A DNA stretch of 64,000 nucleotides, taken from the IMG/VR virus record IMGVR_UViG_2524614843_000001, positions 39,279 to 103,278 of that record. One strand, written 5' to 3'. Positions 2,905 through 64,000 of the stretch are shown piece after piece. The notes under the pieces were generated by a model, which saw only the letters and a program-made list of their open reading frames with translations, did no database searches and had not been told where the DNA came from. How positions within the stretch are numbered: the stretch's first letter is position 1; each line of letters opens with the position of its first letter. This stretch comes from a virus. Its lineage: Duplodnaviria > Heunggongvirae > Uroviricota > Caudoviricetes. The position numbers were made by a program, and so were the translations under genes.

Positions 2905-2932
2905 ATCTGCACCTAAACCTTAACAATATTAA

Positions 2933-2951
2933 ATCACCTGTGACTTATTTA
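2933..2951 (-). promoter_or_regulatory. Class-A intergenic motif copy (aTCAcctgTGACTTATTTA on plus)
   Basis: Between terL stop and portal start; matches consensus GTCA-N4-TGACTTACTTA. Confidence 0.5.
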
Positions 2952-2956
2952 TGCAA

Positions 2957-4213
2957 TCACAAAGAAACGCCCAAAATTTGAACACGGCGCATCGGAAATT
3001 CGAGCTCAATTGGATAGCCAATCGCGTCAGCAATGTGCTCGATACCGGCGCTCTTATCCACTTCGCGCGAACCTTTCTTGTAGAGCACCTGCTCAAATGC
3101 CTTAATCAGATGCTTGCAGCGCTCATCGATGCGCAGAATGACCCGACCGGATGCCGACATAAGCAGTCGATTGACCGCATTGACCCGATCTGCCACTGGA
3201 GGGTGCTTCTTGCGGTACTTAATACGCTTGAAGCCGATCTCTCGCATGATGTCGAGGTCAGACTCACCACGACCATGCTGCCGGCTGGCACCGGCTGGGT
3301 CGGGGTAAAGCGTGATCTGGTTCTTGCCCAGGTAGCGCCAGTAGCGCCGCTCTAACTCGGCGCCCATATCTTCGGTGTTAGAGCTGAACCGCACGCACTC
3401 ATCGACCGCCCACACCTCGCCGTTTGGTTGCGGCTGCAGGATGATTGCGCTCATTGGGTCAATGTTGAAGTCCTGACCAATCCAAATGGGCAAGGCCGGA
3501 TTGAAGTCGTACTTCCCGACATGCACGTTCCGGTCGAAGGTGTAGTACACCCGTCCGCTCATGGTCTCGAACGCCGCGTTGAACTCCTGGTTGAACGTCT
3601 TTTCATCCATATCCGCCTTCGCCGCTTCAATTTCCTCGGGCGGAATAAAGGGCGACATGAGCGTAGGGAACTGCCAGCTCATCCAAGTGCGGCCGTCGCG
3701 CTGCCCCATCATGAAAAGCTTGTGCAAATGGTTGTAGGCCTTTGGCGTTCCGATGATCAGCGCATGACCCAACGTAGAGGCAAGGGTTGGGCGAAGCACC
3801 GTTTCCCACACCTCGGGCTTAATGTCCTGAAACTCGTCCAGCACCACAAAATGCAGACCAACGCCTCGCAAGGTGTCTGGTTTATCCGCACCTTTGAGCT
3901 CGATAATCGTCCCATTGACCAGATGAATGATCATCATGGTTTCATTCATACGTCTGATCAATTTGCGGGGTATAGCGTCGGTAAGCTCGCGCCACATGAT
4001 CTGGCGAGCCATACGGTAGGTAGGCGCCACGTACCAGATCAGCTGCTTAGGCTTAGCCGCATACTTGATGATCGAGATTTTTGAGAGCTGTGTTTTGCCC
4101 CAGCGCCGACCTGCAACCACGACCTTGTAGCGCGCTGGATGCCGATAAACGAGCATCTGGCCGCGATGAAGCTTGAGCGATTGCCGCTTTTTGGCCGTCG
4201 GAACAGTGATCAT
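2957..4213 (-). CDS. terL: Terminase large subunit
   Basis: 418 aa; Walker A VVAGRRWGKT, Walker B-like VVLDEF; C-terminal nuclease-like region; overlaps terS stop. Confidence 0.8.
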   Translation of the reverse strand: MITVPTAKKRQSLKLHRGQMLVYRHPARYKVVVAGRRWGKTQLSKISIIKYAAKPKQLIWYVAPTYRMARQIMWRELTDAIPRKLIRRMNETMMIIHLVNGTIIELKGADKPDTLRGVGLHFVVLDEFQDIKPEVWETVLRPTLASTLGHALIIGTPKAYNHLHKLFMMGQRDGRTWMSWQFPTLMSPFIPPEEIEAAKADMDEKTFNQEFNAAFETMSGRVYYTFDRNVHVGKYDFNPALPIWIGQDFNIDPMSAIILQPQPNGEVWAVDECVRFSSNTEDMGAELERRYWRYLGKNQITLYPDPAGASRQHGRGESDLDIMREIGFKRIKYRKKHPPVADRVNAVNRLLMSASGRVILRIDERCKHLIKAFEQVLYKKGSREVDKSAGIEHIADAIGYPIELEFPMRRVQILGVSL

Positions 4214-4866
4214 TCCGGCACCTCGCTCTCGTCCACCTCGCTCTCGTCATCGACCTCTTCGACTACGCCAGGCTCAAGACCAAACTCTTCCAAATCTTGA
4301 ATTTCCGGCATCGACATGGCTGCGCGCTGCTGGTTGCGGATTTCCTCAACCTCATTGGCCGACAGCTCGGAAATCTCAAAGCCAGGCAACTCCTCTGCGC
4401 CACCCTCTTCTTCTTTGATGCCCAGCAAGATGTACTCTTCGGTGCGCAACTTGCTCATTGCCTCGACACCTAGCTTGATGGTCATCATGGTGTCTTTGAG
4501 GCTATCCATCGAAAAGCCGGCAGGGTTCTCGACGAAGCTCTTTGCAGACAGAGCAGAAATGCTATTGAGCAAGTAGGACAGGCGCTGAGCGGTCTGGATA
4601 TGGCGCTTTTTGGCGTCCTCTTGCAGCTTGAGCTTTTCGTCACGCAGAGCTAGCTCCCGAGCCATGCGCTCTTCGCGCTCTTTCTCTGCCAGCTCGCGGG
4701 CTGCGCGCCCTTTAACCGCACCCAACTCTTTGATCACCCGGGCGATGGTGCCGCGATGCCGATCAAATGCCTTGGCAATCTGCTCGATGCTGGCGTCCAT
4801 CTCGTACATCTCGGCGATTTTCTGTTTTTCCGCCTCGGTCAGACGTGTTTTCGTTTCGCTAGTCAT
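4210..4866 (-). CDS. terS: Terminase small subunit (HTH DNA-binding, acidic C-terminus), putative
   Basis: 218 aa; N-terminal HTH-like segment (IEQIAKAFDRHRGTIARVIKE), coiled-coil, acidic tail; immediately upstream of terL with 4-nt overlap. Confidence 0.5.
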   Translation of the reverse strand: MTSETKTRLTEAEKQKIAEMYEMDASIEQIAKAFDRHRGTIARVIKELGAVKGRAARELAEKEREERMARELALRDEKLKLQEDAKKRHIQTAQRLSYLLNSISALSAKSFVENPAGFSMDSLKDTMMTIKLGVEAMSKLRTEEYILLGIKEEEGGAEELPGFEISELSANEVEEIRNQQRAAMSMPEIQDLEEFGLEPGVVEEVDDESEVDESEVPE

Positions 4867-4879
4867 ACCAATTCAAGTC

Positions 4880-4913
4880 AATAAAAAAAGGGGCAGCGTT
4901 TTACCGCCGCCCC
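4880..4913 (-). terminator. Hairpin plus U-tract (minus-strand sense) 14 nt upstream of terS ATG
   Basis: GGGGCAGCG-ttttac-CGCCGCCCC stem preceded on plus by A8 (U-run on minus transcript). Confidence 0.45.
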
Positions 4914-4988
4914 TTGCACAAACAGGAACCGAACAAGTCTCGCTAAACGCACGACTTGGTTTCATATTACGGCGTTTTAATAACATAA

Positions 4989-5006
4989 GTCAACAGTGAC
5001 TTACTA
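4989..5006 (-). promoter_or_regulatory. Class-A motif copy; its TTGACT half-site plus TAATAT 18 bp downstream form a sigma70-like promoter reading toward terS
   Basis: Minus strand reads TAGTAAGTCACTGTTGACTtatgttattaaaacgccgTAATAT. Confidence 0.45.
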
Positions 5007-5008
5007 TC

Positions 5009-5141
5009 TAATCCGGAGTAGATCGTGGATAGGTAGAAGTTGGGAATTTTTATGCTTTCCAATATTTATTAACTACAGATAGATAGAAAGATAATATCTA
5101 TTGGAGCGTCAAGATTTTCCCAACTCAACCTCTCCGGATTA
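5009..5141. repeat. Nested inverted-repeat element, copy 1 (TAATCCGGAG...GTTGGGAA...CCAATA-[AT-rich core TTAACTACAG + GATAGATAGAAAG]-TATTGG...TTCCCAAC...CTCCGGATTA)
   Basis: Three concentric inverted-repeat pairs around an AT-rich core; second copy at 17699-17860. Confidence 0.7.
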
Positions 5142-5453
5142 CTTCTCCGCGGTAGGCTTTGCAACGAAATTAAGCGCCCCTCGCCGGCTCGCAGCCAAGA
5201 TGCGGAAGGCTTCAAGCGTTGGCTTCCAGAGGTGTCGCTCCTTACCCTCTTCGACGATCACTTCACAGGCGGCAAGACCGTACTGCTGCAGATATGTCAG
5301 AGTGCAGCGCAGCGCACGCGGTGTCGGCGCGTAGCTGAGCATCAAGCGCAGCTCATTCGTCCGGATGGCCTTGCACGCCTCATTCTCATGACAGAGCCTT
5401 GCCAACACCTCCATCTGCTTTACGGTACCGGCGAACTGTTTGACCTTCTTCAT
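5139..5453 (-). CDS. Hypothetical protein (104 aa), last gene of ParB/ABC/GNAT operon
   Basis: GGAGGGA RBS; start overlaps stop of upstream GNAT-like gene. Confidence 0.5.
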   Translation of the reverse strand: MKKVKQFAGTVKQMEVLARLCHENEACKAIRTNELRLMLSYAPTPRALRCTLTYLQQYGLAACEVIVEEGKERHLWKPTLEAFRILAASRRGALNFVAKPTAEK

Positions 5454-7737: not shown

Positions 7738-7740
7738 TAT

Positions 7741-7759
7741 GTCACCTGTGACTTACTTA
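7741..7759 (-). promoter_or_regulatory. Class-A motif copy (GTCAcctgTGACTTACTTA); includes stop codon of ParB-1 and ends 3 nt before ParB-2 ATG
   Basis: Minus reads gcTAAGTAAGTCAcagGTGACataATG. Confidence 0.55.
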
Positions 7760-8489: not shown

Positions 8490-10187
8490 ATGAATCAACC
8501 AACTGTCCAAATCGTACACAACGCAATCACCGCAAAGTTGCTGTGTGAAAACCGAGAGGTTCAGCTGTACGTCGCCAAGCTCATGAGCTACGCGGTTTCG
8601 GGCGCCGAGCACAGCAAGGCGGTCAAAAGCCACGCCTGGGACGGCCGCAGCTCGTTTTTCTCTATGCGCGATCAGACGTTTCCTGCCGGATTCGTCAATA
8701 TGGTGCGCGATTCGCTGACCAAGCTGGGCATCAACTGCGCCGTTCGCGCGAAGCCACTTCCTGAGCCGCTCGGGCCGGAGGACTTTTGGAACGCCGACGG
8801 CATCGGTAACAGCGACGAGCGCTACGACTACCAGCCAGAGACCATCCACCGCCTGCTCAAGCACGGTCGGGGCATTGCGCAGATCGCAACCGGTGGCGGT
8901 AAATCACGCATCTGCCGGCTGGCCTACGCCCGCATCAATCGCCCCACCCTCTTCCTGACAACTCGTTCGGTGCTGATGTACCAGATGAAGAAGAACTTTG
9001 AGGATACCTTTAAAGAGGAAGTCGCTGTTCTGGGCGATGGCGAGTTTGGCATCGAGTACGCCAAGACTGACGGTACCAAAGGGCGCCGGCTGACCAAGTT
9101 CACTGTTGCCATGATTCAAACGCTCGCTTCCAGACTGGAAATGCCGGCTGAGATTGGCGCGCGTGAGCGTCGGCGCGCAAACGAAGTGCTGAACAAGGCC
9201 GCGGAGAAGGCGCGGAAAATGACCGCGGAAGCTGCCGCCAAGTACATTGAGCAAGCAAAGCGCCAGTCCGAAGAAATCATCGCCAGCATTCCAGCCAAGG
9301 AAGAAGCACAGCGCCGTCGGCGTGAGGCAACCATCCAGATTCTCTCGCGCTTCGAGTTCGTGGTGCTGGAGGAAGCGCACGAAGCGTCCGGCAACAGCTA
9401 CTACGAGATCTGCCAGCACTGCACCAATGCGCACTACCGGCTCGCGCTGACCGCCACCCCGTTCATGAAGGGCGACGAGGAAGCGAACATGCGCCTGATG
9501 GCTGTGTCCGGTCAGGTGTTTATCAAGGTCTCCGAGAAGCTGCTGATCGATCGTGGCATCCTTGCCCGCCCCTACTTCAAGTTTATCCGGTTGCTAGAAA
9601 AGCCAAAGGGGCTCAATCGCACGACGGCCTGGCAGAAGGCCTACAAGATGGGCGTGACTGAAAATCCTCACCGGAACAAGGCCATCATCCGTGAGGCGTA
9701 CAAGGCTGCATCAATCGGACTGCCGGTGATGATTCTGGTACAGGCAAAGGTGCATGGCGCGCTGCTCGATGACACCCTGAAAAAGCTCGGTATCCGGTCG
9801 AGCTACATTTTCGGCGACAGCTCGCAGGAAGAGCGCGAGCGTGAGCTCGGCAAGCTCAAGTCGGGCGAAACCCAAGTGCTGATCGGCTCAACGATTCTGG
9901 ATGTGGGTGTGGACGTGCCGGCCGTCGGGATGGTGATTCTGGCTGGTGGCGGGAAGGCGGAAGTTGCCCTTCGCCAGCGTATCGGGCGCGGACTGCGAGC
10001 GAAGAAGGACATGCCAAACGTGTGTCTGGTCGTGGATTTCGACGATCATCACAACAACCATCTGTACGACCATGCGATGACTCGCCAGTACCACATCCGG
10101 AATACGCCAGGCTTCGCGGAAGGGGTGCTGGCGGCAGGGGGCGAATTTGACTATCTCGGTCTTGGGCTCATAAAATCAGCAGCGTAA
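8490..10187 (+). CDS. Superfamily-2 DNA helicase (DEAD/DEAH-box, UvsW/type III res-like) with coiled-coil insertion
   Basis: 565 aa; Walker A IATGGGKS, motif II VLEEAH, motif VI QRIGRGLR; only large plus-strand core gene. Confidence 0.8.
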   Translation: MNQPTVQIVHNAITAKLLCENREVQLYVAKLMSYAVSGAEHSKAVKSHAWDGRSSFFSMRDQTFPAGFVNMVRDSLTKLGINCAVRAKPLPEPLGPEDFWNADGIGNSDERYDYQPETIHRLLKHGRGIAQIATGGGKSRICRLAYARINRPTLFLTTRSVLMYQMKKNFEDTFKEEVAVLGDGEFGIEYAKTDGTKGRRLTKFTVAMIQTLASRLEMPAEIGARERRRANEVLNKAAEKARKMTAEAAAKYIEQAKRQSEEIIASIPAKEEAQRRRREATIQILSRFEFVVLEEAHEASGNSYYEICQHCTNAHYRLALTATPFMKGDEEANMRLMAVSGQVFIKVSEKLLIDRGILARPYFKFIRLLEKPKGLNRTTAWQKAYKMGVTENPHRNKAIIREAYKAASIGLPVMILVQAKVHGALLDDTLKKLGIRSSYIFGDSSQEERERELGKLKSGETQVLIGSTILDVGVDVPAVGMVILAGGGKAEVALRQRIGRGLRAKKDMPNVCLVVDFDDHHNNHLYDHAMTRQYHIRNTPGFAEGVLAAGGEFDYLGLGLIKSAA

Positions 10188-17524: not shown

Positions 17525-17552
17525 GAGACTGATCTGCCGAGAGTGAGGATGA
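17525..17552 (+). repeat. 28-bp direct repeat (iteron-like) copy 1: GAGACTGatcTGCCgAGAGTGAGGATGa
   Basis: One of 4 same-orientation copies. Confidence 0.7.
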
Positions 17553-17594
17553 CCAGGCTGCGGGACAGGCCGGATACCCGAGGGCGAGTACCGG

Positions 17595-17622
17595 AGAGAC
17601 TGGCGTGCCTAGAGTGGGGATG
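17595..17622 (+). repeat. Iteron-like repeat copy 2
   Basis: GAGACTGGCGTGCCTAGAGTGGGGATGG. Confidence 0.7.
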
Positions 17623-17698
17623 GCTCGTTCCTGAGCCGTGGGTGGCCGCGGCCAGGCTTTCACTCCCAATCCGGAAGTGGCGGACTGCCTGCGGCTCG

Positions 17699-17881: not shown

Positions 17882-17909
17882 GAGACTGGTTTGCCTAGAG
17901 TGAGGATGA
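17882..17909 (+). repeat. Iteron-like repeat copy 3
   Basis: GAGACTGGTTTGCCTAGAGTGAGGATGA. Confidence 0.7.
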
Positions 17910-18030
17910 GGCACTCCGGAAGTGCGTCAAACTGCCATTTTCCCAACTCCAAGGCGCCTCATTCCCAACTGCCTCTGTCATACCCTTCCGACCCATACAC
18001 GCGCACAGGCCGGGACTCGGGAAAGGCCTT

Positions 18031-18448: not shown

Positions 18449-18476
18449 GAGACTGGTGTGACCAGAGTGAGGATGG
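18449..18476 (+). repeat. Iteron-like repeat copy 4 (preceded by TAATCCGGAGTAG half-site)
   Basis: GAGACTGGTGTGACCAGAGTGAGGATGG. Confidence 0.7.
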
Positions 18477-18526
18477 GCAGGACGTGCCAAGGTAGGGAGA
18501 GGAAAGGCACAGCCGAGGGAGCCGGC

Positions 18527-18965: not shown

Positions 18966-19548
18966 GGATAGGTTCTCTTTGTGAAAATGGATGGCGTACC
19001 TCAGTCTGGATGAGGCCTGTCTGTGTGGAAGTATTCTGCCTGAATTGGATGGCGTTTTCTGGTTTGGCCTGTCTCTCTGTCTGTTTCTCTTCCTATCTAT
19101 CTATCGCTCTATCTCTCTGTCTAGCGGGAATGACGTTTCCCTGCGCTCTGCTGCGTTTTCGTGTGTCCGGATGAGTCGTGATATGTCCGGAGCTTGCCCG
19201 CGCGCTCTGTGTGCGATTGTGCGGATTTGTCTGGATGGATGACGAATGTGAGGGAGGATGAATTACCGGAGCAGGCTGATCATGTGTTTTTTGCTGCATT
19301 GATGCTGCATTTCTTCGCGAAGGCTTGAAATTATTGGCATTTTGAATAGGCGGAAATCGAAAGCCTATTTGCATTAAACCATTGTGAATACGACATACGA
19401 GCGTTGATTTGCGGCAGGATTGCGTCACTTTTACAGCAAACAGCGCTGGTTGAATCTTGGAATGCAGATATATTTGGAGGCATGAATAATTAGGTCTTAC
19501 CATATTGCCCATATACACACTTAATCATCTACCATTTGGGAGAATCTC

Positions 19549-20250: not shown

Positions 20251-21591
20251 TTAGCAGTAGGCAAGCAGCTCGATGAGTGAGTTTGCGATTGCCTCATCTT
20301 CAAGCTGCCAACATTCTTTGGCGAGATTAGTGACGATACTTGCCAACTTGAAGTTATCAGGCGATCGCTCCTTGAGCAGTTGAGGCTGTGTGTAAAAGAG
20401 CACCAACGCCCAGCGATACAATCCTGCGCTCTTGAGCAAGTGGTTAATCTTGCGCTCTTCTTGAGGCACAGCTGCTGCAGAACAGACGATTTCCTTATAG
20501 GGCGCCGTCAGAGGATTAGGCCATGCGCGCTCTTCCGCCACTTTCCACTTGCAAGCATTACCCCAATAGAGCGCGGTAAACACATGATTCGCGCAGCTCA
20601 GCGGTCGGCTTTTTGAGTAGGGCTGATAAGGCACTTTGGTCAGCAAGGCAACAATTGCATCACGGTTGACGAGTCCTGCCTCAAATGCACTCACTAGCCT
20701 GGCCGTATGATCATCATTTGCTTGATCGGGGAAGAGCGAGCTGATCGTATCGCCGGTCTCTATGAGATAACCCATGTCACACATGCCAAGCTCAGCGAGC
20801 TTTTGCATTACATACATGCCGTTTTCGGCGTAATTGCACAGGTAGATACCCATAGCTCGCTTGAGAGAATAGCGAGTTTTTTGGCATCGATAGTCAAACA
20901 GCGCAGCCTGCTCTGCCGATAGTTGATACCGGCAATCCTCAAAGAAAACCTCCATGTAATGCCGGAATGCTTGGAAAAGCTGGGCATTTGTCCAATTGGA
21001 TTGGACAGCGCCGCTGGCCATGAAATCAACCATCTTGGCGTCAAAGACGTAATCAATGCAGCCATAGTCGAGCTCTTCGGCAGACAGCACATTGCCTTTG
21101 AGCAGGTTCTCACGCATCGAGTTATGAGTGGTTTCAATGTAATGCCAGGCACTCCCCGGCGATTGCTTAATTGGCCATTCGGTTTCGCCTGCAAACCCTT
21201 CCATCTTCATCTGCTGAGCAAAGTCAGTCATGCCATCAGGTGAAAAGAGTCCCGCATTCAGATAGTCAAAAATGATGCGTAGCTTTCCGAGCCTTCTGTA
21301 ATGGCTGGGGTAAAAAGGGGCGACCGAGTGCGGATTATTGAAAGGGCTGGAGCCATTTTTGATACTGGCGCTCAAGTGCTGCACGATGGCTTTTCCGTTG
21401 GGCGCCACTTTCCAAAGATACTCGTTAGCAAGGGTCGTGAATTGTTTTTCTAGCTTTTGAGCTCTCCCCTTTGTCGTACCCAAAAGCTTAGCGATTTCTT
21501 CGATGCTAATTTCAGAGTCTTTCGCCGCGACAGCGCGAGCCGCGTCAAAGTAGGATTTGAAGGTGATGTGATCGTTTGTAGAAGCGGCCAT
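20251..21591 (-). CDS. Large hypothetical protein, paralog A (N-terminal HTH resembling sigma-70 region 4)
   Basis: 446 aa; about 40-45% identical over long stretches to 21932..23356 (e.g. EYLWKVAPNGK, GSAWHY, FMASG.VQS.W). Confidence 0.6.
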   Translation of the reverse strand: MAASTNDHITFKSYFDAARAVAAKDSEISIEEIAKLLGTTKGRAQKLEKQFTTLANEYLWKVAPNGKAIVQHLSASIKNGSSPFNNPHSVAPFYPSHYRRLGKLRIIFDYLNAGLFSPDGMTDFAQQMKMEGFAGETEWPIKQSPGSAWHYIETTHNSMRENLLKGNVLSAEELDYGCIDYVFDAKMVDFMASGAVQSNWTNAQLFQAFRHYMEVFFEDCRYQLSAEQAALFDYRCQKTRYSLKRAMGIYLCNYAENGMYVMQKLAELGMCDMGYLIETGDTISSLFPDQANDDHTARLVSAFEAGLVNRDAIVALLTKVPYQPYSKSRPLSCANHVFTALYWGNACKWKVAEERAWPNPLTAPYKEIVCSAAAVPQEERKINHLLKSAGLYRWALVLFYTQPQLLKERSPDNFKLASIVTNLAKECWQLEDEAIANSLIELLAYC

Positions 21592-21931: not shown

Positions 21932-23356
21932 TTATCGGTAGTACATCAGTGCTGCCAGCTTGTCGGCGATTTCACAGTCATCCATTTTCCAATGCTCGCT
22001 CAGGATTTCCTTGACCAAAGCAGCCAGCTTAAAGTTTTCCGGTGATTGCTTTTCGAGGAACTCGGGCTCGGCGCAGTAAAGCGTCAGCGCCCACTGATGC
22101 AATCCGGTGCGAGATAGCAGCTCGGAAATGGTGCGATCTTCTCCTTCCAACTCGAGGGCGAGCTTGATCATTTCCGACTTAGGTGTATTGAGCGGCTCAG
22201 GCCAGTTCAGCGGCTTCTGAATCTCCCAGTCGCTATAGTTCGCCCAGTAATGCGCTCTAAAAACAAGTGCGGCGCAATCCAGAGGTCGCTCGATACTCAC
22301 ATGCTCACTGCATTCTTCGGCGATGGCCATTTTGATCATGTTTTCGCGGTCAATGAGTCCGGCTGTGAAAACATCGGCGAGTCGTGCGAGTGCGCCTTCT
22401 TTTTTCAAATTGGTAAACAGAGACGTTTGCGGATTGCCATATCGCGGCAGCAAATCAGCGTCGCATAGACCAAGTTCAATCAGCGTTTCCATAACCTTCG
22501 TGCCACCGGCTTTGTAATGGCAAAGGAATCTAGCCATTCGCTCTTTGAGGTCGATCAGGGTGGCGTAGCAGCGTTGAGATAGGGCTCGGAGCTCCTCTTC
22601 TGGCAGCTCATATTGGCATTTTTCATAAAAATCGATCATGTACTGGCGGAAGCTCTCAGTCAGCTTGTCATCGTGCCAAGAGCTTTGAACGAGACCGCTC
22701 GCCATAAAGTCGATGACCTTTGCCTCAAAGGTATAGCGATTGTGAGCAAAGGCGGCTTCATCGGCAGAAAGAACAGCACCTTTGAGCAGATGATCGCGTA
22801 TCGAGCTGTTCATGCTATCCAAGTAATGCCAGGCGCTCCCTTCATGTTTCTCGATTGGCCATTCTTCTTCACCATCAAAACCGTCACACCTTATTTGTTC
22901 CGCGAAATCGAGCATCAGGTCGTGCGAAAACAGACCGGCATCCAGATATTCAAAAATCGTCCGTAACTTAGTCAGCCGATTATTTTTGGGGTAGGGCAAC
23001 GAAGAAATCCAATGCCTTTTGAAAAAATCAGCTCGAGGCTTTTTGAGGATGCTCAGCAGATGTTCAATAATCTCTTTGCCATTTGGTGCCACTTTCCACA
23101 GGTACTCGCCAGCTAGGAAGATGAATTGCTTTTCTTTCTTTTTGGCGCGTCTGACTGTGGTACCCATGATCGCGGCAATTTCATCGATGCTGATATTCTG
23201 GTCTTTGGCCGCGACAGTTCGAGCGGCATCAAAGTAGTCTTGGTAGCTCAAACCTTTGCTGCCGATACCGATTCGATTTAGTGCATGTATCGCCTTCTCT
23301 TCATTCAAACCAGATTCGATAAGGATTTTCAAAGATTGCTCGTATCGAGTTCCCAT
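21932..23356 (-). CDS. Large hypothetical protein, paralog B
   Basis: 474 aa; paralogous to 20251..21591. Confidence 0.6.
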   Translation of the reverse strand: MGTRYEQSLKILIESGLNEEKAIHALNRIGIGSKGLSYQDYFDAARTVAAKDQNISIDEIAAIMGTTVRRAKKKEKQFIFLAGEYLWKVAPNGKEIIEHLLSILKKPRADFFKRHWISSLPYPKNNRLTKLRTIFEYLDAGLFSHDLMLDFAEQIRCDGFDGEEEWPIEKHEGSAWHYLDSMNSSIRDHLLKGAVLSADEAAFAHNRYTFEAKVIDFMASGLVQSSWHDDKLTESFRQYMIDFYEKCQYELPEEELRALSQRCYATLIDLKERMARFLCHYKAGGTKVMETLIELGLCDADLLPRYGNPQTSLFTNLKKEGALARLADVFTAGLIDRENMIKMAIAEECSEHVSIERPLDCAALVFRAHYWANYSDWEIQKPLNWPEPLNTPKSEMIKLALELEGEDRTISELLSRTGLHQWALTLYCAEPEFLEKQSPENFKLAALVKEILSEHWKMDDCEIADKLAALMYYR

Positions 23357-26072: not shown

Positions 26073-26213
26073 GACTGGTTACTTCGCGTGAAACTCGATG
26101 CGTGTATTGTGCAACTCAATTCGCGGCAAATAATAAGTCAGCGCGGACTGATTAACAAGCCCCAATTTATGCCCTTGGCACTAGGAAAAACCTGAATAAA
26201 TAGAAAGGCAGAA

Positions 26214-26250
26214 AGAAAGATAGATAGATAAATGGATAGATAGAAAGAAG
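26214..26250. repeat. Class-B motif, tandem copies (AGAAAGATAGATAGATAAATGGATAGATAGAAAGAAG)
   Basis: GATA-repeat family. Confidence 0.6.
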
Positions 26251-26251
26251 G

Positions 26252-26286
26252 CTAAAAAGATAGGCTGGAGCTATCTATCTCCAGCC
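26252..26286 (-). terminator. Terminator hairpin GGCTGGAG-ctatctat-CTCCAGCC followed on minus by TATCTTTTT
   Basis: After stop of 26303..27100. Confidence 0.6.
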
Positions 26287-26302
26287 TTCCTTGTTTCAGG
26301 CA

Positions 26303-27100
26303 TTACGCGGTTTCTTTCTTGTATTTCGCTACGATGGTTGAGTTTTCGAGCAGACGCAAACCACTACGACCGGAACGCTCAGCGATTTTCATTGCAGGGA
26401 ATAACTGCATAATCTGACCAGTCTGAGAGTTGATTGTGCCTGACTTATAGCCTGCAGCTTCCATTGCGGAACGGATAACGCTTGAATCGCATTCGCCGGT
26501 TGCAACCAACTTATCCAGCGCAATCTTGGTATAAACCGAGATAGCCACATCGTCTTGCAGGTAAGCAAAGAGGTTCTTAGCCTTCTCTTTCACCTTGACC
26601 GCGAGTTGATCGATGATCGCTGCAGTTTCAGTTGGTCCCTCGCCAGCACTGAGCTCGACAGTGGCAGCGACTTCACGCGCAGCCCGACCCTTACCCGCTG
26701 TCGCTTTTGGCGCTTCTTCGTTTGCACTTGCCTTCTTACCGGCAGCGCGGCTGCGAGTGCTGGCTTTCTCGGATGGTGTGGCAGAGGCCTTCTCTTCATC
26801 CGGAGCGGCCGACTCTTGCTCGGCGTAGATTTTTTCCCGAGCCTCAATCGAATTGATCACCGCCTCTTCATCTTCGATGGAGACTGACGCAGCAACCGCT
26901 TCGGCTTCCGGCTCAACTTCGACTTCACGCTCGTCACTGGCGCTCAGCGCTGTTGGTTCAAGACTGCCGATCAGCGCATCGAGCTCGGCATCAGAAACGA
27001 TTTGGTTTTCGCCGGCTGCAGCGGTAACTGATGATTCATCCAGACCTTGCAGCAGAGCGTCCAGATCGGCAGAGGTAGCTTGGTTGATTTCTTGACTCAT
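26303..27100 (-). CDS. Hypothetical protein with highly acidic N-terminal half
   Basis: 265 aa; D/E-rich first about 100 aa. Confidence 0.5.
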   Translation of the reverse strand: MSQEINQATSADLDALLQGLDESSVTAAAGENQIVSDAELDALIGSLEPTALSASDEREVEVEPEAEAVAASVSIEDEEAVINSIEAREKIYAEQESAAPDEEKASATPSEKASTRSRAAGKKASANEEAPKATAGKGRAAREVAATVELSAGEGPTETAAIIDQLAVKVKEKAKNLFAYLQDDVAISVYTKIALDKLVATGECDSSVIRSAMEAAGYKSGTINSQTGQIMQLFPAMKIAERSGRSGLRLLENSTIVAKYKKETA

Positions 27101-29955: not shown

Positions 29956-30001
29956 GGTTTATTCCTTGTTCTTTTCGATGATTCAGTGTCCATCGAGCCA
30001 T

Positions 30002-30035
30002 AAGGGCGTGCATTCATTGTGAGAAGCACGCCCTT
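30002..30035. other. Strong hairpin AAGGGCGTGC-N14-GCACGCCCTT (no U-tract) followed by class-B motif at 30054-30070
   Basis: 10-bp perfect stem. Confidence 0.5.
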
Positions 30036-30092
30036 ATCTGGCTTTCTTGCTGTCTTTCTATCTATCTATCGCTCTTTCTAGTAAGCGATCTA

Positions 30093-30467
30093 TCAAGGGG
30101 TGGATTTCACCGTTACAACTGCCGCGAAGGTCACTCTCTGCTCGCAGCTATCCTCCGGAAGCACAGCGGGCAGGCCGTTGAGGTCATAGCCTTTGTGGTA
30201 GTGGTCGTTGAGATCGATGCCGGTGATCATCTGATACAGGTCTCGCACATCGTCCTCGGTGCCGTCGAAGAAGGCCTGCGCAATACCCTCTTCATCCACG
30301 CCGTACAGCGTCCAGAAGGTTGAGAGGTATCCATCCAGCAGATGCGGGTCGGCGAGCACCGTTTTGTCGTCGGCATAGAGCGCCAGCGGCTCGACAAAAG
30401 GCTCTTGGTTTTCATCGAGCAGCTCAACGCAACGGCGAATGTCATAACTGGTGAAGCGCTTAGTCAT
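30093..30467 (-). CDS. Hypothetical acidic protein (124 aa)
   Basis: Start at MTKRFTSY. Confidence 0.5.
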   Translation of the reverse strand: MTKRFTSYDIRRCVELLDENQEPFVEPLALYADDKTVLADPHLLDGYLSTFWTLYGVDEEGIAQAFFDGTEDDVRDLYQMITGIDLNDHYHKGYDLNGLPAVLPEDSCEQRVTFAAVVTVKSTP

Positions 30468-30603: not shown

Positions 30604-30620
30604 CCTTTCTATCTATCTAT
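30604..30620. repeat. Class-B motif copy CTTTCTATCTATCTATC
   Basis: GATA-repeat family. Confidence 0.6.
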
Positions 30621-31437: not shown

Positions 31438-31488
31438 AACTCACCTATTACTAACTTTGGTTAATGGGAAATAGGGCGATATTGGCTG

Positions 31489-31566
31489 TCTATCTATCTA
31501 TCGCTCTATCTGTGATTGATATTCTCTAGCTGCTTTTCTGGCTATCGATGGGAGATAGATAGAAAG
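31489..31566. repeat. Two class-B motif arms in inverted orientation (TCTATCTATCTATC ... GAGATAGATAGAAAG) flanking a 50-bp spacer
   Basis: Palindromic arrangement. Confidence 0.6.
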
Positions 31567-37844: not shown

Positions 37845-37861
37845 CTTTCTATCTATCTATC
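37845..37861. repeat. Class-B motif copy CTTTCTATCTATCTATC in trx 5' leader
   Basis: Minus reads GATAGATAGATAGAAAG cg AGAAAGAAGGAAAAccc ATG. Confidence 0.6.
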
Positions 37862-39046: not shown

Positions 39047-39835
39047 ATGAATGTGAAATCGCTATTTTGGTCTCGTAGAAGGGTCAAAGAGCGCAATGCC
39101 AGGGCGCTTTCTCTACAGCCAAGCAGGAATCAGTCCGACACTTTGGTTGTGAATGTGATTGCCGATCTGTCACAGGCTGATCTTTGCGGTCAAAATATTG
39201 CTCAGCAGGATTCGACAAGTAAAGCGCCAAAAAGATTGCACATGTCTAGGGTTATTGGAAAAAGAGGCGATGGTCGTCAGCGCAGCTCAGTTGTAAATAA
39301 ATTGAGCTATGCCTCTCCCTTTGATGCTACAAGCTTTTCGGTAGAGCTGGATTCAAACGGCGAGCTGAAAATATACCATCCAAAGAAAGCGCATCCGGTA
39401 CGTCCTTCAAACGATGAACTCTTGTACTACAAGGGGCGCCCAATCTCATTAGACCATGCAGGCGACATCAAGCAGAGCATCGCTTTTGCCAAGATGATTG
39501 AAGAAGGGCTCGACACGAAAACCATAAGGGCTCTTTTGGATGTAGGATTTACGCAGACTGAGCTCGATGTGGTCATACCTGCACGCACTCTGAAACGCAG
39601 GCTTGTATCTGATCAACAGCTGACCCGTGAAGAGTCGGCAAAATTGGTGCGATACGTTCGCACCTTCTCATCGGCTCTTGAGATCTTTGGCGATAAGGAA
39701 AAAGCGCTGGCATGGTTAAGAGCCCCCAAGAAGAAGCTGGATGGCAAAACGCCGCTCGATCTTCTGTCAAACGAAATAGCGGCTCAAGTAGTTGAGGATT
39801 ACCTTGGACAAATTCAGTCAGGGTACTTCGCATGA
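39047..39835 (+). CDS. Xre/MbcA/ParS-type antitoxin (C-terminal HTH + DUF2384 domain) with unusual about 110-aa N-terminal extension
   Basis: C-terminal ...GKTPLDLLSNEIAAQVVEDYLGQIQSGYFA typical of RES-partner antitoxins; GGAGG RBS; lower GC than surroundings; start uncertain. Confidence 0.55.
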   Translation: MNVKSLFWSRRRVKERNARALSLQPSRNQSDTLVVNVIADLSQADLCGQNIAQQDSTSKAPKRLHMSRVIGKRGDGRQRSSVVNKLSYASPFDATSFSVELDSNGELKIYHPKKAHPVRPSNDELLYYKGRPISLDHAGDIKQSIAFAKMIEEGLDTKTIRALLDVGFTQTELDVVIPARTLKRRLVSDQQLTREESAKLVRYVRTFSSALEIFGDKEKALAWLRAPKKKLDGKTPLDLLSNEIAAQVVEDYLGQIQSGYFA

Positions 39836-53087: not shown

Positions 53088-53108
53088 GAAAGATAGATAG
53101 ATAGAAAG
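53088..53108. repeat. Class-B motif copy AGAAAGATAGATAGATAGAAAG
   Basis: GATA-repeat family. Confidence 0.6.
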
Positions 53109-55097: not shown

Positions 55098-55120
55098 AGT
55101 GCCGGCGCTTGGCCGGCACT
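55098..55120 (-). other. Perfect hairpin GTGCCGGC-caagc-GCCGGCAC + TTTTCTCT between class-A motif and RBS
   Basis: Either a terminator or a 5'-terminal mRNA stem-loop. Confidence 0.5.
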
Positions 55121-55122
55121 AT

Positions 55123-55146
55123 GTCACCTATGACTTACTTACTTAA
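55123..55146 (-). promoter_or_regulatory. Class-A motif copy, extended (GTCAcctaTGACTTACTTACTTAA); supplies TAA stop of SSB gene
   Basis: Best consensus match. Confidence 0.6.
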
Positions 55147-62656: not shown

Positions 62657-64000
62657 TTAGTCTTTCAGTAGCAGCTGGGACAGCTCGCTCACGACGCGCT
62701 CGGGCAGCTCTTCCAGCTTGTTCACAACCACGCTTCGGTTGTAGAACCGCTGCACGGCATTACTCATGATGCCGATGCCGATCACTTCCACGAATTTTTC
62801 GATTTCCTGCACCTTAGATGCCAGATGCGCATTCGCCACCGCATACTTGCAAGAAGGGATATGAAATGCTGGCGCCCCGTCAGACAGCACGATCAAGATG
62901 TGTCGGGTCGCTTTTTGCCGCACCAAACGTCGCGCGCCAATCATGACCGATTCCCCATCGATGTTATTGAGCAGCGGAATGTCATGACTGGCCGCCGCGA
63001 TCATGTTGATCTTGTGCTCACGGTTGAAGCGCTCATCAAAGGTCTTGAAGATTGGCATGTTGATCGGCTCAATCCGGTCGAAGTAATCTTTATTTGGCTC
63101 CGCATCCCAGCCTTCAACCAACTCTTTAGGCAGTTCGCTCGTTGTAAAGCCGATAACCTCATTCGGAATCCGAAGGCGATCAAGCGTCTCAGCCAATGCC
63201 CACGCGGCCTGCATTGCCAGCAAGACTTTGGAGCCACTCATTGAGCCCGACATATCAACCATGAGCTGCACAGCCACAGAGCGCGCTGTAGCCTGCACCT
63301 TCTCGCGGAATACCCGCGTATCACCGGTTTTCAGACGATGGAGTGCTGCGCCATGAATGCGCCCTTTCTTCTGTCCTCCATACCAAAACACCTGATCGCG
63401 CGCCGACACTGCCCGTTCAAGACGCTTTTGCATTTGACCGGCCATGTGCCTGATCTGCTCTTCCATGCCATGAATTTCATTTTCGGCCGACTCTGCCGCA
63501 CGACTACTGATGCGGACGGGCTCAATGCGGTCATACTCCGTACTAAACACCTGGTACGGCGAATCTTTGATTTCATCTAGCGCCATCGAGCCGATCAGAT
63601 TAGCCATTGACTCGTCGAACTCGGGAATTTCCTCTTTGCTCATGTCCAGATCGCGGGGCAGACCGACCTTTGAAGAACGATCTTCCTCTTCTTCGGTCTC
63701 TGTCGGTGTCGGCACAGTCGCGTTTTCATCTTCGGACTCTTCTGGCGCCTCGCTCGGTTCTGGAGCCGGTTCTTCTGAGCCTGTGAAATCGCCCTCTCCT
63801 GATTCTGGCGCGGACTCGTTTGGCTCAGGCTCTTCTGGCGATTCGGGCTCAAGATCTCCCTCCGATGATTCTGGCTCCTCCGGATGCGGTTCTTCGCTCT
63901 CAGGTTCCGGTTCCGCCTCTGGTTCAACCTCAGACTCCGGTTCGGAAGGCTGTTCTTCGGACTCGGGTTCGGACTCGGGTTCGGACTCGGGTTCGGACTC
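62657..64000 (-). CDS. von Willebrand factor A (CobT-like) protein with N-terminal acidic (ESEP)n repeat region; 5' end beyond window
   Basis: MIDAS motif DMSGSMSG; frame stays open upstream of the listed GTG at 63715 through a Glu/Ser/Pro tandem repeat to the window end. Confidence 0.7.
   Translation of the reverse strand, partial: ESEPESEPESEPESEEQPSEPESEVEPEAEPEPESEEPHPEEPESSEGDLEPESPEEPEPNESAPESGEGDFTGSEEPAPEPSEAPEESEDENATVPTPTETEEEEDRSSKVGLPRDLDMSKEEIPEFDESMANLIGSMALDEIKDSPYQVFSTEYDRIEPVRISSRAAESAENEIHGMEEQIRHMAGQMQKRLERAVSARDQVFWYGGQKKGRIHGAALHRLKTGDTRVFREKVQATARSVAVQLMVDMSGSMSGSKVLLAMQAAWALAETLDRLRIPNEVIGFTTSELPKELVEGWDAEPNKDYFDRIEPINMPIFKTFDERFNREHKINMIAAASHDIPLLNNIDGESVMIGARRLVRQKATRHILIVLSDGAPAFHIPSCKYAVANAHLASKVQEIEKFVEVIGIGIMSNAVQRFYNRSVVVNKLEELPERVVSELSQLLLKD

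Follow-up and report, generated by a model that had tools for sequence, protein, structure and literature searches.

How does transcription reach the packaging genes of a phage when a promoter and a complete intrinsic terminator stand, in that order, directly before them? The question is posed by the gap upstream of terS, the putative small terminase gene, on the minus strand of the 64,000-nt stretch of viral DNA analyzed here (hereafter the window; positions 39,279 to 103,278 of IMG/VR record IMGVR_UViG_2524614843_000001). An earlier note on this DNA had placed a sigma70-like promoter and a terminator there and had raised the possibility of an antitermination-controlled late operon. All of the elements are present and the arrangement is conserved in relatives; the positions first given were right apart from offsets of 2-3 nt, and the distance from the T-run of the terminator to the terS ATG is 16 nt instead of 14. 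The explanation that we favor, with about even confidence and from sequence comparison, is that a conserved promoter-leader-terminator cassette gates transcription into terS and the adjoining large terminase gene, terL, and that read-through of the terminator is probably regulated. Coordinates are collected in Table 1.

Promoter, leader and terminator before terS

The terminator hairpin (AAGGGGCGGCGG-TAAAAC-GCTGCCCCTT, positions 4915-4888 on the minus strand) has a folding free energy (dG) of -22.2 kcal/mol. When both strands of the 64 kb are scanned for a stem of at least 9 bp with at least 7 GC pairs followed by at least 7 T in 8 positions, it is the only structure found, and 30 shuffles yielded none. 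No promoter fits between the T-run and the ATG, either in the 16 nt of the window or in the 13-29 nt of relatives, and thus expression of terS and terL requires read-through of the terminator. The idea of an antitermination-controlled late operon holds in so far as terS needs such read-through, but it does not extend to the structural operon as a whole: each of the portal, scaffold and capsid genes is preceded by a promoter of its own that contains the palindrome described below, and the gate therefore most likely governs only terS-terL.

Two overlapping candidate promoters lie upstream of the terminator. The first, Pb, matches the sigma70 consensus at 9 of 12 positions, with a -35 and a -10 in the geometry of that class (16-18 bp spacer), and its significance rests on conservation in relatives rather than on this single match. 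Its -35 hexamer, TTGACT, is present as the earlier note had read it, yet it is not free-standing, being part of the right arm of a palindrome at 4986-5003 that recurs throughout the family. The second, Pa, has the geometry typical of the family, in which the palindrome occupies the spacer. Whichever of the two is used, the predicted start lies at least 45 nt upstream of the terminator. The transcript predicted from about 4957 to the U-tract would be 77 nt long and would have, from its 5' end, a hairpin, then a linker rich in pyrimidines and last the terminator, a fold with z = -4.4. Searches of Rfam with the window gap and seven relatives, at gathering and permissive thresholds, gave no match to a known RNA family.

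Forty-seven distinct terS-upstream regions of related loci were compared, with other open reading frames (ORFs) in the same loci as the control. In about 21 of the 47, a canonical terminator ends 13-29 nt before the ATG, with stems whose sequences bear no relation to one another; set against the control, 20 of 46 terS genes have such a terminator, compared with 7 among 360 other ORFs (odds ratio ~39; p ~8e-16). It is therefore the position of the parts (promoter, short leader, terminator and a gap of about 20 nt) that is conserved, and not the sequence of the stem. About 17 diverged loci follow one regular layout and are referred to as type A. An A-rich stretch is followed by TAAGTCA-N4-TGAtTGACA, in which the palindrome, starting 13 nt before TTGACA, merges into a near-consensus -35 at the place equivalent to that of the window hexamer; then come N17, a -10 of the form TAnAnT (or TAnnnT), a leader of 20-50 nt, a GGGCnn...nnGCCC stem, T7-8, about 20 nt with a Shine-Dalgarno sequence (SD), and the ATG. 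The predicted terminated RNAs are 45-76 nt long and end in U6-8. The window is a variant of this layout, with its -35 inside the palindrome arm, Pa as a second candidate promoter, and a longer leader that carries a 5' hairpin.

Otherwise unconserved, the leaders share a CU-rich, anti-Shine-Dalgarno-like box, TTCTCCTCC, in about 10-12 of 18 cases. It lies 1-12 nt upstream of the terminator stem (for example at about 3330 in locus L014, 2580 in L026, and 3290 in both L035 and L084) and is mostly unpaired in predicted folds; general pairing with the terS SD is not seen. Conservation of this CU-box suggests a recognition element.

Two ways in which the leader might act on translation were rejected. 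In read-through RNA, the linker of the window can pair with GAAUUGG at the start of terS, a gene with a weak SD, unlike other window genes, which are preceded by AAGGAG-type SDs. As a general translational lock, however, pairing of the linker or CU-box with the terS SD was found only in the window and in loci L084 and L004, and its median rank across the family against random 16-mers is 0.85. A 30-codon ORF (MKPSRAFSETCSVPVCARGGGKTLPLFLLT; 4873-4966, minus strand) covers the leader and terminator, with its stop 6 nt before the terS ATG. This ORF is probably not translated: it has no SD and is not conserved, and the 20-50-nt leaders of relatives are too short to encode a leader peptide. A small antisense ORF lying opposite the CU-box was dismissed as well, since its peptides, compared by eye, show no conservation.

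A palindrome in promoters across the family

The element overlapping the -35 of Pb had been described as a "class-A copy" of a repeat, and the repeat is real. Allowing up to three mismatches, TAAGTCANNNNTGACTTA occurs 29 times in the window against 1.3 expected, and the copy at 4986-5003 has no mismatch. In the 47 related loci, AAGTCA-N4-TGACTT occurs 171 times (about 15 expected). The palindrome is directional, with TAAG preceding on the coding strand, and its sites are intergenic gaps in syntenic positions: before terS, between terL and the portal gene, ahead of the scaffold gene and of the capsid gene, and also past the latter. Variants at the half-sites are particular to a genome and symmetric (AAGTAA/TTACTT, AAATCA/TGATTT). 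The palindrome is mostly absent from the enterobacterial SSU5 branch and from nickie, and SSU5 and Cyrano have a hairpin-GUGUGUUUU variant.

Copies of the palindrome start 9-10 nt after the upstream stop codon, and their distance to the next ATG is loose. Because the order at these sites is stop codon, TTGCAA-like -35, 2-4 nt, palindrome and TAtnAT -10, the palindrome appears to constitute the spacer of a sigma70-type promoter. Promoter scores of at least 8/12 are reached in 32% of palindrome copies against 2.8% of control positions, and scores of at least 9/12 in 14% against 0.4%. Both in the window and in relatives, promoters with this order come directly after the stop codons of the terL, portal and scaffold genes; one of them is the portal promoter of the window, which begins directly after the terL stop codon. 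Many palindrome promoters have no terminator downstream.

Two other roles for the palindrome were considered and rejected. If it were a plain -35, most copies in the window would be too near the next ATG; it sits instead between the -35 and the -10. If it acted as an RNA hairpin, the commonest arm variant, TGACATA, would disrupt the pairing, uncompensated, and for this reason, together with the fixed promoter geometry of the element, a protein site at the DNA level is preferred. Another copy (7738-7755) stands where two ParB-like genes are separated by a 15-nt gap; the SD of the downstream gene coincides with the loop and right arm of this copy (AGGTGA), and a -10-like CATAAT overlaps the ATG of that gene.

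Where terminators do follow palindrome promoters, they form two separate classes, one at the capsid-gene site and the other at terS. In the first, the bypass class, the hairpin begins 0-4 nt after the -10. This arrangement occurs at 55137-55098 in the window and, in about 16 relatives, downstream of the major capsid gene (loci L002-L095, at about 8700-9150). Bypass-class transcripts are expected to escape termination because they start inside the 5' arm, so that the terminator cannot form; the design appears to insulate, halting upstream transcripts while re-initiating. In the terS class, the hairpin is found 45-71 nt away from that position and the whole of it is transcribed, and the terminator should therefore act on the transcripts of its own promoter. 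The overlap at the capsid gene thus indicates that the family has a route by which a terminator can be bypassed, and this route is not used at terS.

In the window, and in nearly all relatives, the gene that adjoins the terS gap on its upstream side encodes a small winged-helix (wHTH) protein. A family profile (alignment A1) matches the DNA-binding domains of MarR, PadR and LexA. The protein encoded at 5139-5453 has no Q-family match in Pfam at E<=1, and the family profile has none. Several homologues in alignment A1 (for example those of L026, L035, L031, L010, L004 and L018) end in an acidic C-terminal tail (..EDxDL.., ..LEEL..) that the window protein does not have. Between the wHTH stop codon and the palindrome, the space is filled by the large inverted repeat at 5010-5138, and analogous inverted repeats stand at the same place in most relatives (loci L001-L100), with TATATA, GTAAG or AAGT..ACTT at their centers. 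Conceivably, the repeat could be a cos- or pac-related site, an RNase III substrate or a binding site for the wHTH protein.

Table 1. Positions in the window of the parts of the terS cassette, its neighbors and the sites compared with it
Feature	Position	Strand	Basis or value
Large terminase gene terL	2957..4213	-	phrog_2/phrog_10250, E ~1e-49
Putative small terminase gene terS (N-terminal HTH protein)	4210..4866	-	4-nt overlap with terL; synteny
Spacer of 16 nt from T-run to terS ATG (4866); weak SD, no promoter elements	4867..4882	-	
Intrinsic terminator: 11-bp stem (8 GC), 6-nt loop, T7 at 4889-4883	4883..4915	-	
Pyrimidine-rich linker GUUCGGUUCCUGUUUGUGC at the CU-box position (UUCUCCUCC) of relatives	4916..4934	-	leader comparison
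Leader 5' hairpin AAGUC-N13-GACUU	4935..4957	-	RNA fold
Predicted transcription start of Pb (A, 7 nt after -10)	4957	-	inferred from promoter geometry
-10 hexamer of Pb, TAATAT; spacer 18 nt	4964..4969	-	consensus scan
-35 hexamer of Pb, TTGACT	4988..4993	-	read from sequence and consensus scan
Palindrome TAAGTCA-N4-TGACTTA, perfect copy, operator-like, overlaps -35	4986..5003	.	repeat scan
Alternative overlapping promoter Pa: TAGATA (5010-5005), 17-nt palindrome-containing spacer, TATGTT (4987-4982)	4982..5010	-	score 8/12
Large imperfect inverted repeat with AT-rich center, contains CTATCTATC	5010..5138	-	dG -42.3 kcal/mol, z = -6.4
Small winged-helix (MarR/PadR/LexA-DBD-like) gene, last of ParB/ABC operon, candidate regulator	5139..5453	-	profile matches
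Separate portal promoter: TTGCAT (2956-2951), 17-nt spacer, palindrome 2930-2947, TTTAAT (2933-2928)	2928..2956	-	
Contrast case: palindrome promoter whose -10, CATAGT, adjoins a terminator hairpin	55098..55137	-	

Proposed gated read-through and its alternatives

If the cassette gates transcription, the host sigma70 RNA polymerase would start at a promoter whose -35 is overlapped by a palindromic, operator-like element, and the transcript would carry a complete and very strong intrinsic terminator 45-75 nt downstream. Without additional input, most of these transcripts, and read-through from the ParB/ABC/wHTH operon as well, would end as an RNA of about 75 nt, and terS and terL would be reached only by polymerases that read through. 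The restraint on transcription of the packaging genes is probably deliberate, and read-through, in our view, is not a fixed leak but is controlled by a phage factor. This control would not work in the manner of lambda Q; candidate inputs are a palindrome-binding factor, the adjacent wHTH protein and, in relatives, the CU-rich leader box.

Several observations weigh against this interpretation. The sigma70 match by itself is at chance level, with 4 promoter-like sites in 12 kb where 5.5 are expected, and the CU-box is weak in the leader of the window. Roughly half of the family members, mostly with alphaproteobacterial hosts, have no terminator and carry the palindrome 5-12 nt before the terS ATG, and thus the gate seems dispensable in some lineages. 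No antiterminator, sigma factor or RNA polymerase is recognizable among 20 orphan proteins screened from the middle of the window, and none is annotated in the Klebsiella phage pJN2-26, so that the processive antitermination suggested earlier finds no candidate agent in either. In addition, a fixed partial terminator or a small regulatory RNA (sRNA) would explain the same sequence features.

Of these, a passive attenuator fares best, although we consider it unlikely. The terminator would be constitutively leaky and would set a low, fixed level of terS-terL expression with no antitermination factor, terminase being needed in catalytic amounts. The separate palindrome promoters of the portal, scaffold and capsid genes are consistent with such an arrangement, as are the weak terS SD of the window and the failure to find an antiterminator or a conserved pause element. 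However, coupling the near-consensus promoters of type A to very strong terminators would be an odd route to weak expression, the conserved CU-box in the leaders is left unexplained, and a palindrome over the -35 implies regulation.

It could also be that the short RNA is itself the product, namely a trans-acting sRNA, some 47-76 nt long, that has an Hfq-type U7-8 terminator and, in relatives, a CU-rich seed resembling an anti-SD, with read-through into terS being secondary, as for IsrK of Gifsy-1 or the 6S RNA of lambda. A strong promoter of its own, a short transcript and a strong terminator with a long U-tract would suit this role, as would the mostly unpaired CU-box and unstructured 5' part in relatives and the well-folded transcript of the window; a dual sRNA and leader has a published precedent (PMC4825925). 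Nevertheless, this proposal is doubtful. Rfam holds no match, the leader is unconserved apart from the CU-box, a clear CU-box is absent in the window copy, and no significant target was found among 70 translation-initiation regions of the window (p ~0.15). The sRNAs on pMT1 from published Y. pestis RNA-seq map elsewhere and not to the terS gap. Moreover, about 20 lineages keep the position fixed at ~20 nt upstream of terS, which favors a role in cis.

A bolder proposal, in which we place little confidence, is a hitherto undescribed late-gene switch, independent of Q, in the SSU5-like family, whereby a palindrome-binding factor (possibly the wHTH protein) loaded at the promoter would make host RNA polymerase terminator-resistant, or the released CU-box RNA would be a family-wide phage sRNA with an anti-Shine-Dalgarno seed. 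If true, either would add a new class of regulation to a widespread group to which phage-plasmids of the pMT1/pHCM2 type belong.

It is very unlikely that the terminator is purely an insulator that ends the upstream ParB/ABC/wHTH operon, next to a promoter-like sequence that is non-functional or incidental. It is the first canonical terminator after that operon, the chance-level sigma70 score would be accounted for, and phages of the RinA type also have a terminator between a regulator gene and terS. Yet terS would be left without a promoter, since nothing fits in the 16 nt that remain; the palindrome and TTGACA-N17-TAnnnT recur upstream of the terminator in fixed geometry in about 17 diverged loci; and for insulation the family uses the other, overlapping design at the capsid-gene site.

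A true lambda-type Q cassette (a Q gene, pR' with an element that binds Q (QBE) as well as a sigma-dependent pause, and tR') in control of the whole structural operon, the likeness drawn in the earlier note, is most improbable: the order of small DNA-binding protein gene, promoter, terminator and late genes mimics Q-pR'-tR' and a DNA element, the palindrome, lies at the promoter, but the adjacent gene is a MarR/PadR/LexA-type wHTH that matches no Q family, the downstream late genes have promoters of their own, and the sigma-dependent pause element (-10-like, at +1..+30) is not enriched, given that 18% of leaders (3 of 17) contain it compared with 13% of control 30-mers and that the window lacks it.

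Comparison with described systems sharpens these distinctions. The Q cassette consists of the Q gene, pR' with its QBE, a sigma-dependent pause element, a terminator and the late genes (10.1101/651190). Lambdoid Q-pR'-tR', with its 6S RNA, resembles the terS gap in having a small DNA-binding-protein gene upstream, a DNA element at a sigma70 promoter, a short transcript that is terminated, and, separating the promoter from the first late gene, a strong intrinsic terminator, with packaging genes beyond. Here, in contrast, a Q-family protein and a conserved -10-like pause are both absent, the leader of relatives spans only 20-50 nt, and the gate stands directly before terS and not before lysis genes. 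No single processive event is needed, since promoters of their own serve the later structural genes.

Attenuating leaders are also known from phage-derived late modules. IsrK of Gifsy-1 is a promoter-proximal attenuating leader before phage-derived late genes, with short and read-through isoforms (PMC4825925), and BrrG of BaGTA, which is Q21-like, belongs to a leader-attenuated late module (10.1101/2024.11.20.624540). Both are like the terS cassette in having a promoter-proximal terminator or attenuating leader before late genes and short and read-through RNA isoforms, both predicted in the case of terS; they differ in using Q-like antiterminators (AntQ; the Q21-like BrrG) and a -10-like element, neither of which was found at terS. 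Gram-positive phages of the RinA/LtrC/ArpU type have a regulator gene next to terS, a terminator between the two and a regulated promoter in the gap, all of which have counterparts here; in phi11/80alpha the mapped start lies 23-24 bp before the terS ATG, and the terminator is upstream of this start and is an insulator only (PMC3152322). Here, the terminator is downstream of the promoter and would be transcribed from it, and only 16 nt separate the T-run from the ATG.

A fourth comparison is with the phage-plasmid P1. In P1, Lpa-dependent late promoters have a palindrome between the -35 and -10 positions. The scattered C1 operators and Lpa promoters of that phage, like the elements described here, are many short regulatory elements in the cores of sigma70-type promoters, including those before late genes. 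The sequence, the geometry (here a 16-bp 6-N4-6 palindrome as the spacer) and the proteins are different. The role of Lpa is described elsewhere (PMC8198154).

Searches of the literature found no description of lytic gene control in SSU5-like phage-plasmids, these signals included. The comparison provides a regulatory map, consisting of a family-wide palindrome in sigma70-type promoters, a bypass at the capsid gene as against a putative gate at terS, and a gene for a candidate regulator. Should read-through be regulated, a dedicated checkpoint not of the Q type would govern the production of terminase and, with it, packaging and transduction; if the terminator is only a fixed attenuator, it would represent ordinary though neat tuning of expression.

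The phage, its relatives and further repeats

The window derives from an SSU5-like phage or phage-plasmid of a betaproteobacterium (Chitinibacter), as indicated by TerL similarity, by conserved gene order and by the protein encoded at 5139-5453, which matches exactly a hypothetical protein of Chitinibacter tainanensis from a ~103-kb contig; other contigs with this gene are the same element. Its TerL is 60-64% identical to those of SSU5-like phage-plasmids, Rhizobium RHEph10-like phages and Pseudomonas nickie-like phages, in which the gene order of the window is kept. The closest TerL relative has an identity of only 69%, and blastn against phage GenBank returned no DNA-level match.

The order shared with the SSU5-like family runs from a helicase through ParB-ParB-ABC...wHTH to terS-terL-portal-scaffold-MCP (major capsid protein), TerL and portal are homologous, and DnaE, CobS/T and RNR are also encoded. 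The cassette is thus flanked by a ParB-ParB-ABC ATPase operon upstream and by the putative terS (an HTH protein), terL, portal and scaffold genes. Elsewhere, the window encodes a DnaE-type Pol III alpha, CobS/CobT, RNR and SbcCD. The same synteny and the same gap architecture before terS are found in Klebsiella, Rhizobium and Pseudomonas relatives. SSU5-like phage-plasmids are widespread, comprising Yersinia pMT1-like, Salmonella pHCM2-like and Klebsiella elements together with numerous relatives from the environment.

Several further repeats were noted in the window. Elements of the form GATAGATAGATA / TATCTATCTATC occur in nine intergenic regions and in both orientations (5078-5089, 19094-19105, 26215-26246, 30055-30066, 30606-30617, 31487-31498, 31554-31565, 37846-37857 and 53088-53099); some, though not all, form the center of strong hairpins (26156-26305, z -4.7; 29986-30135, z -4.4). 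A 33-nt direct repeat (GAGACTGGTGTGCCTAGAGTGAGGATG...) is present in four copies within about 1 kb (17525-17557, 17596-17628, 17882-17914 and 18449-18481), partly inside weak ORFs, and its iteron-like spacing may mark a plasmid replication or partition site. The last positions of the window, 63956-64000, are a perfect 12-nt tandem repeat (TTCGGACTCGGG). Finally, a 173-nt direct repeat with 72% identity (21390-21562 and 23074-23246) lies inside two adjacent orphan genes of 446 aa and 474 aa that have no family match and are probably paralogues.

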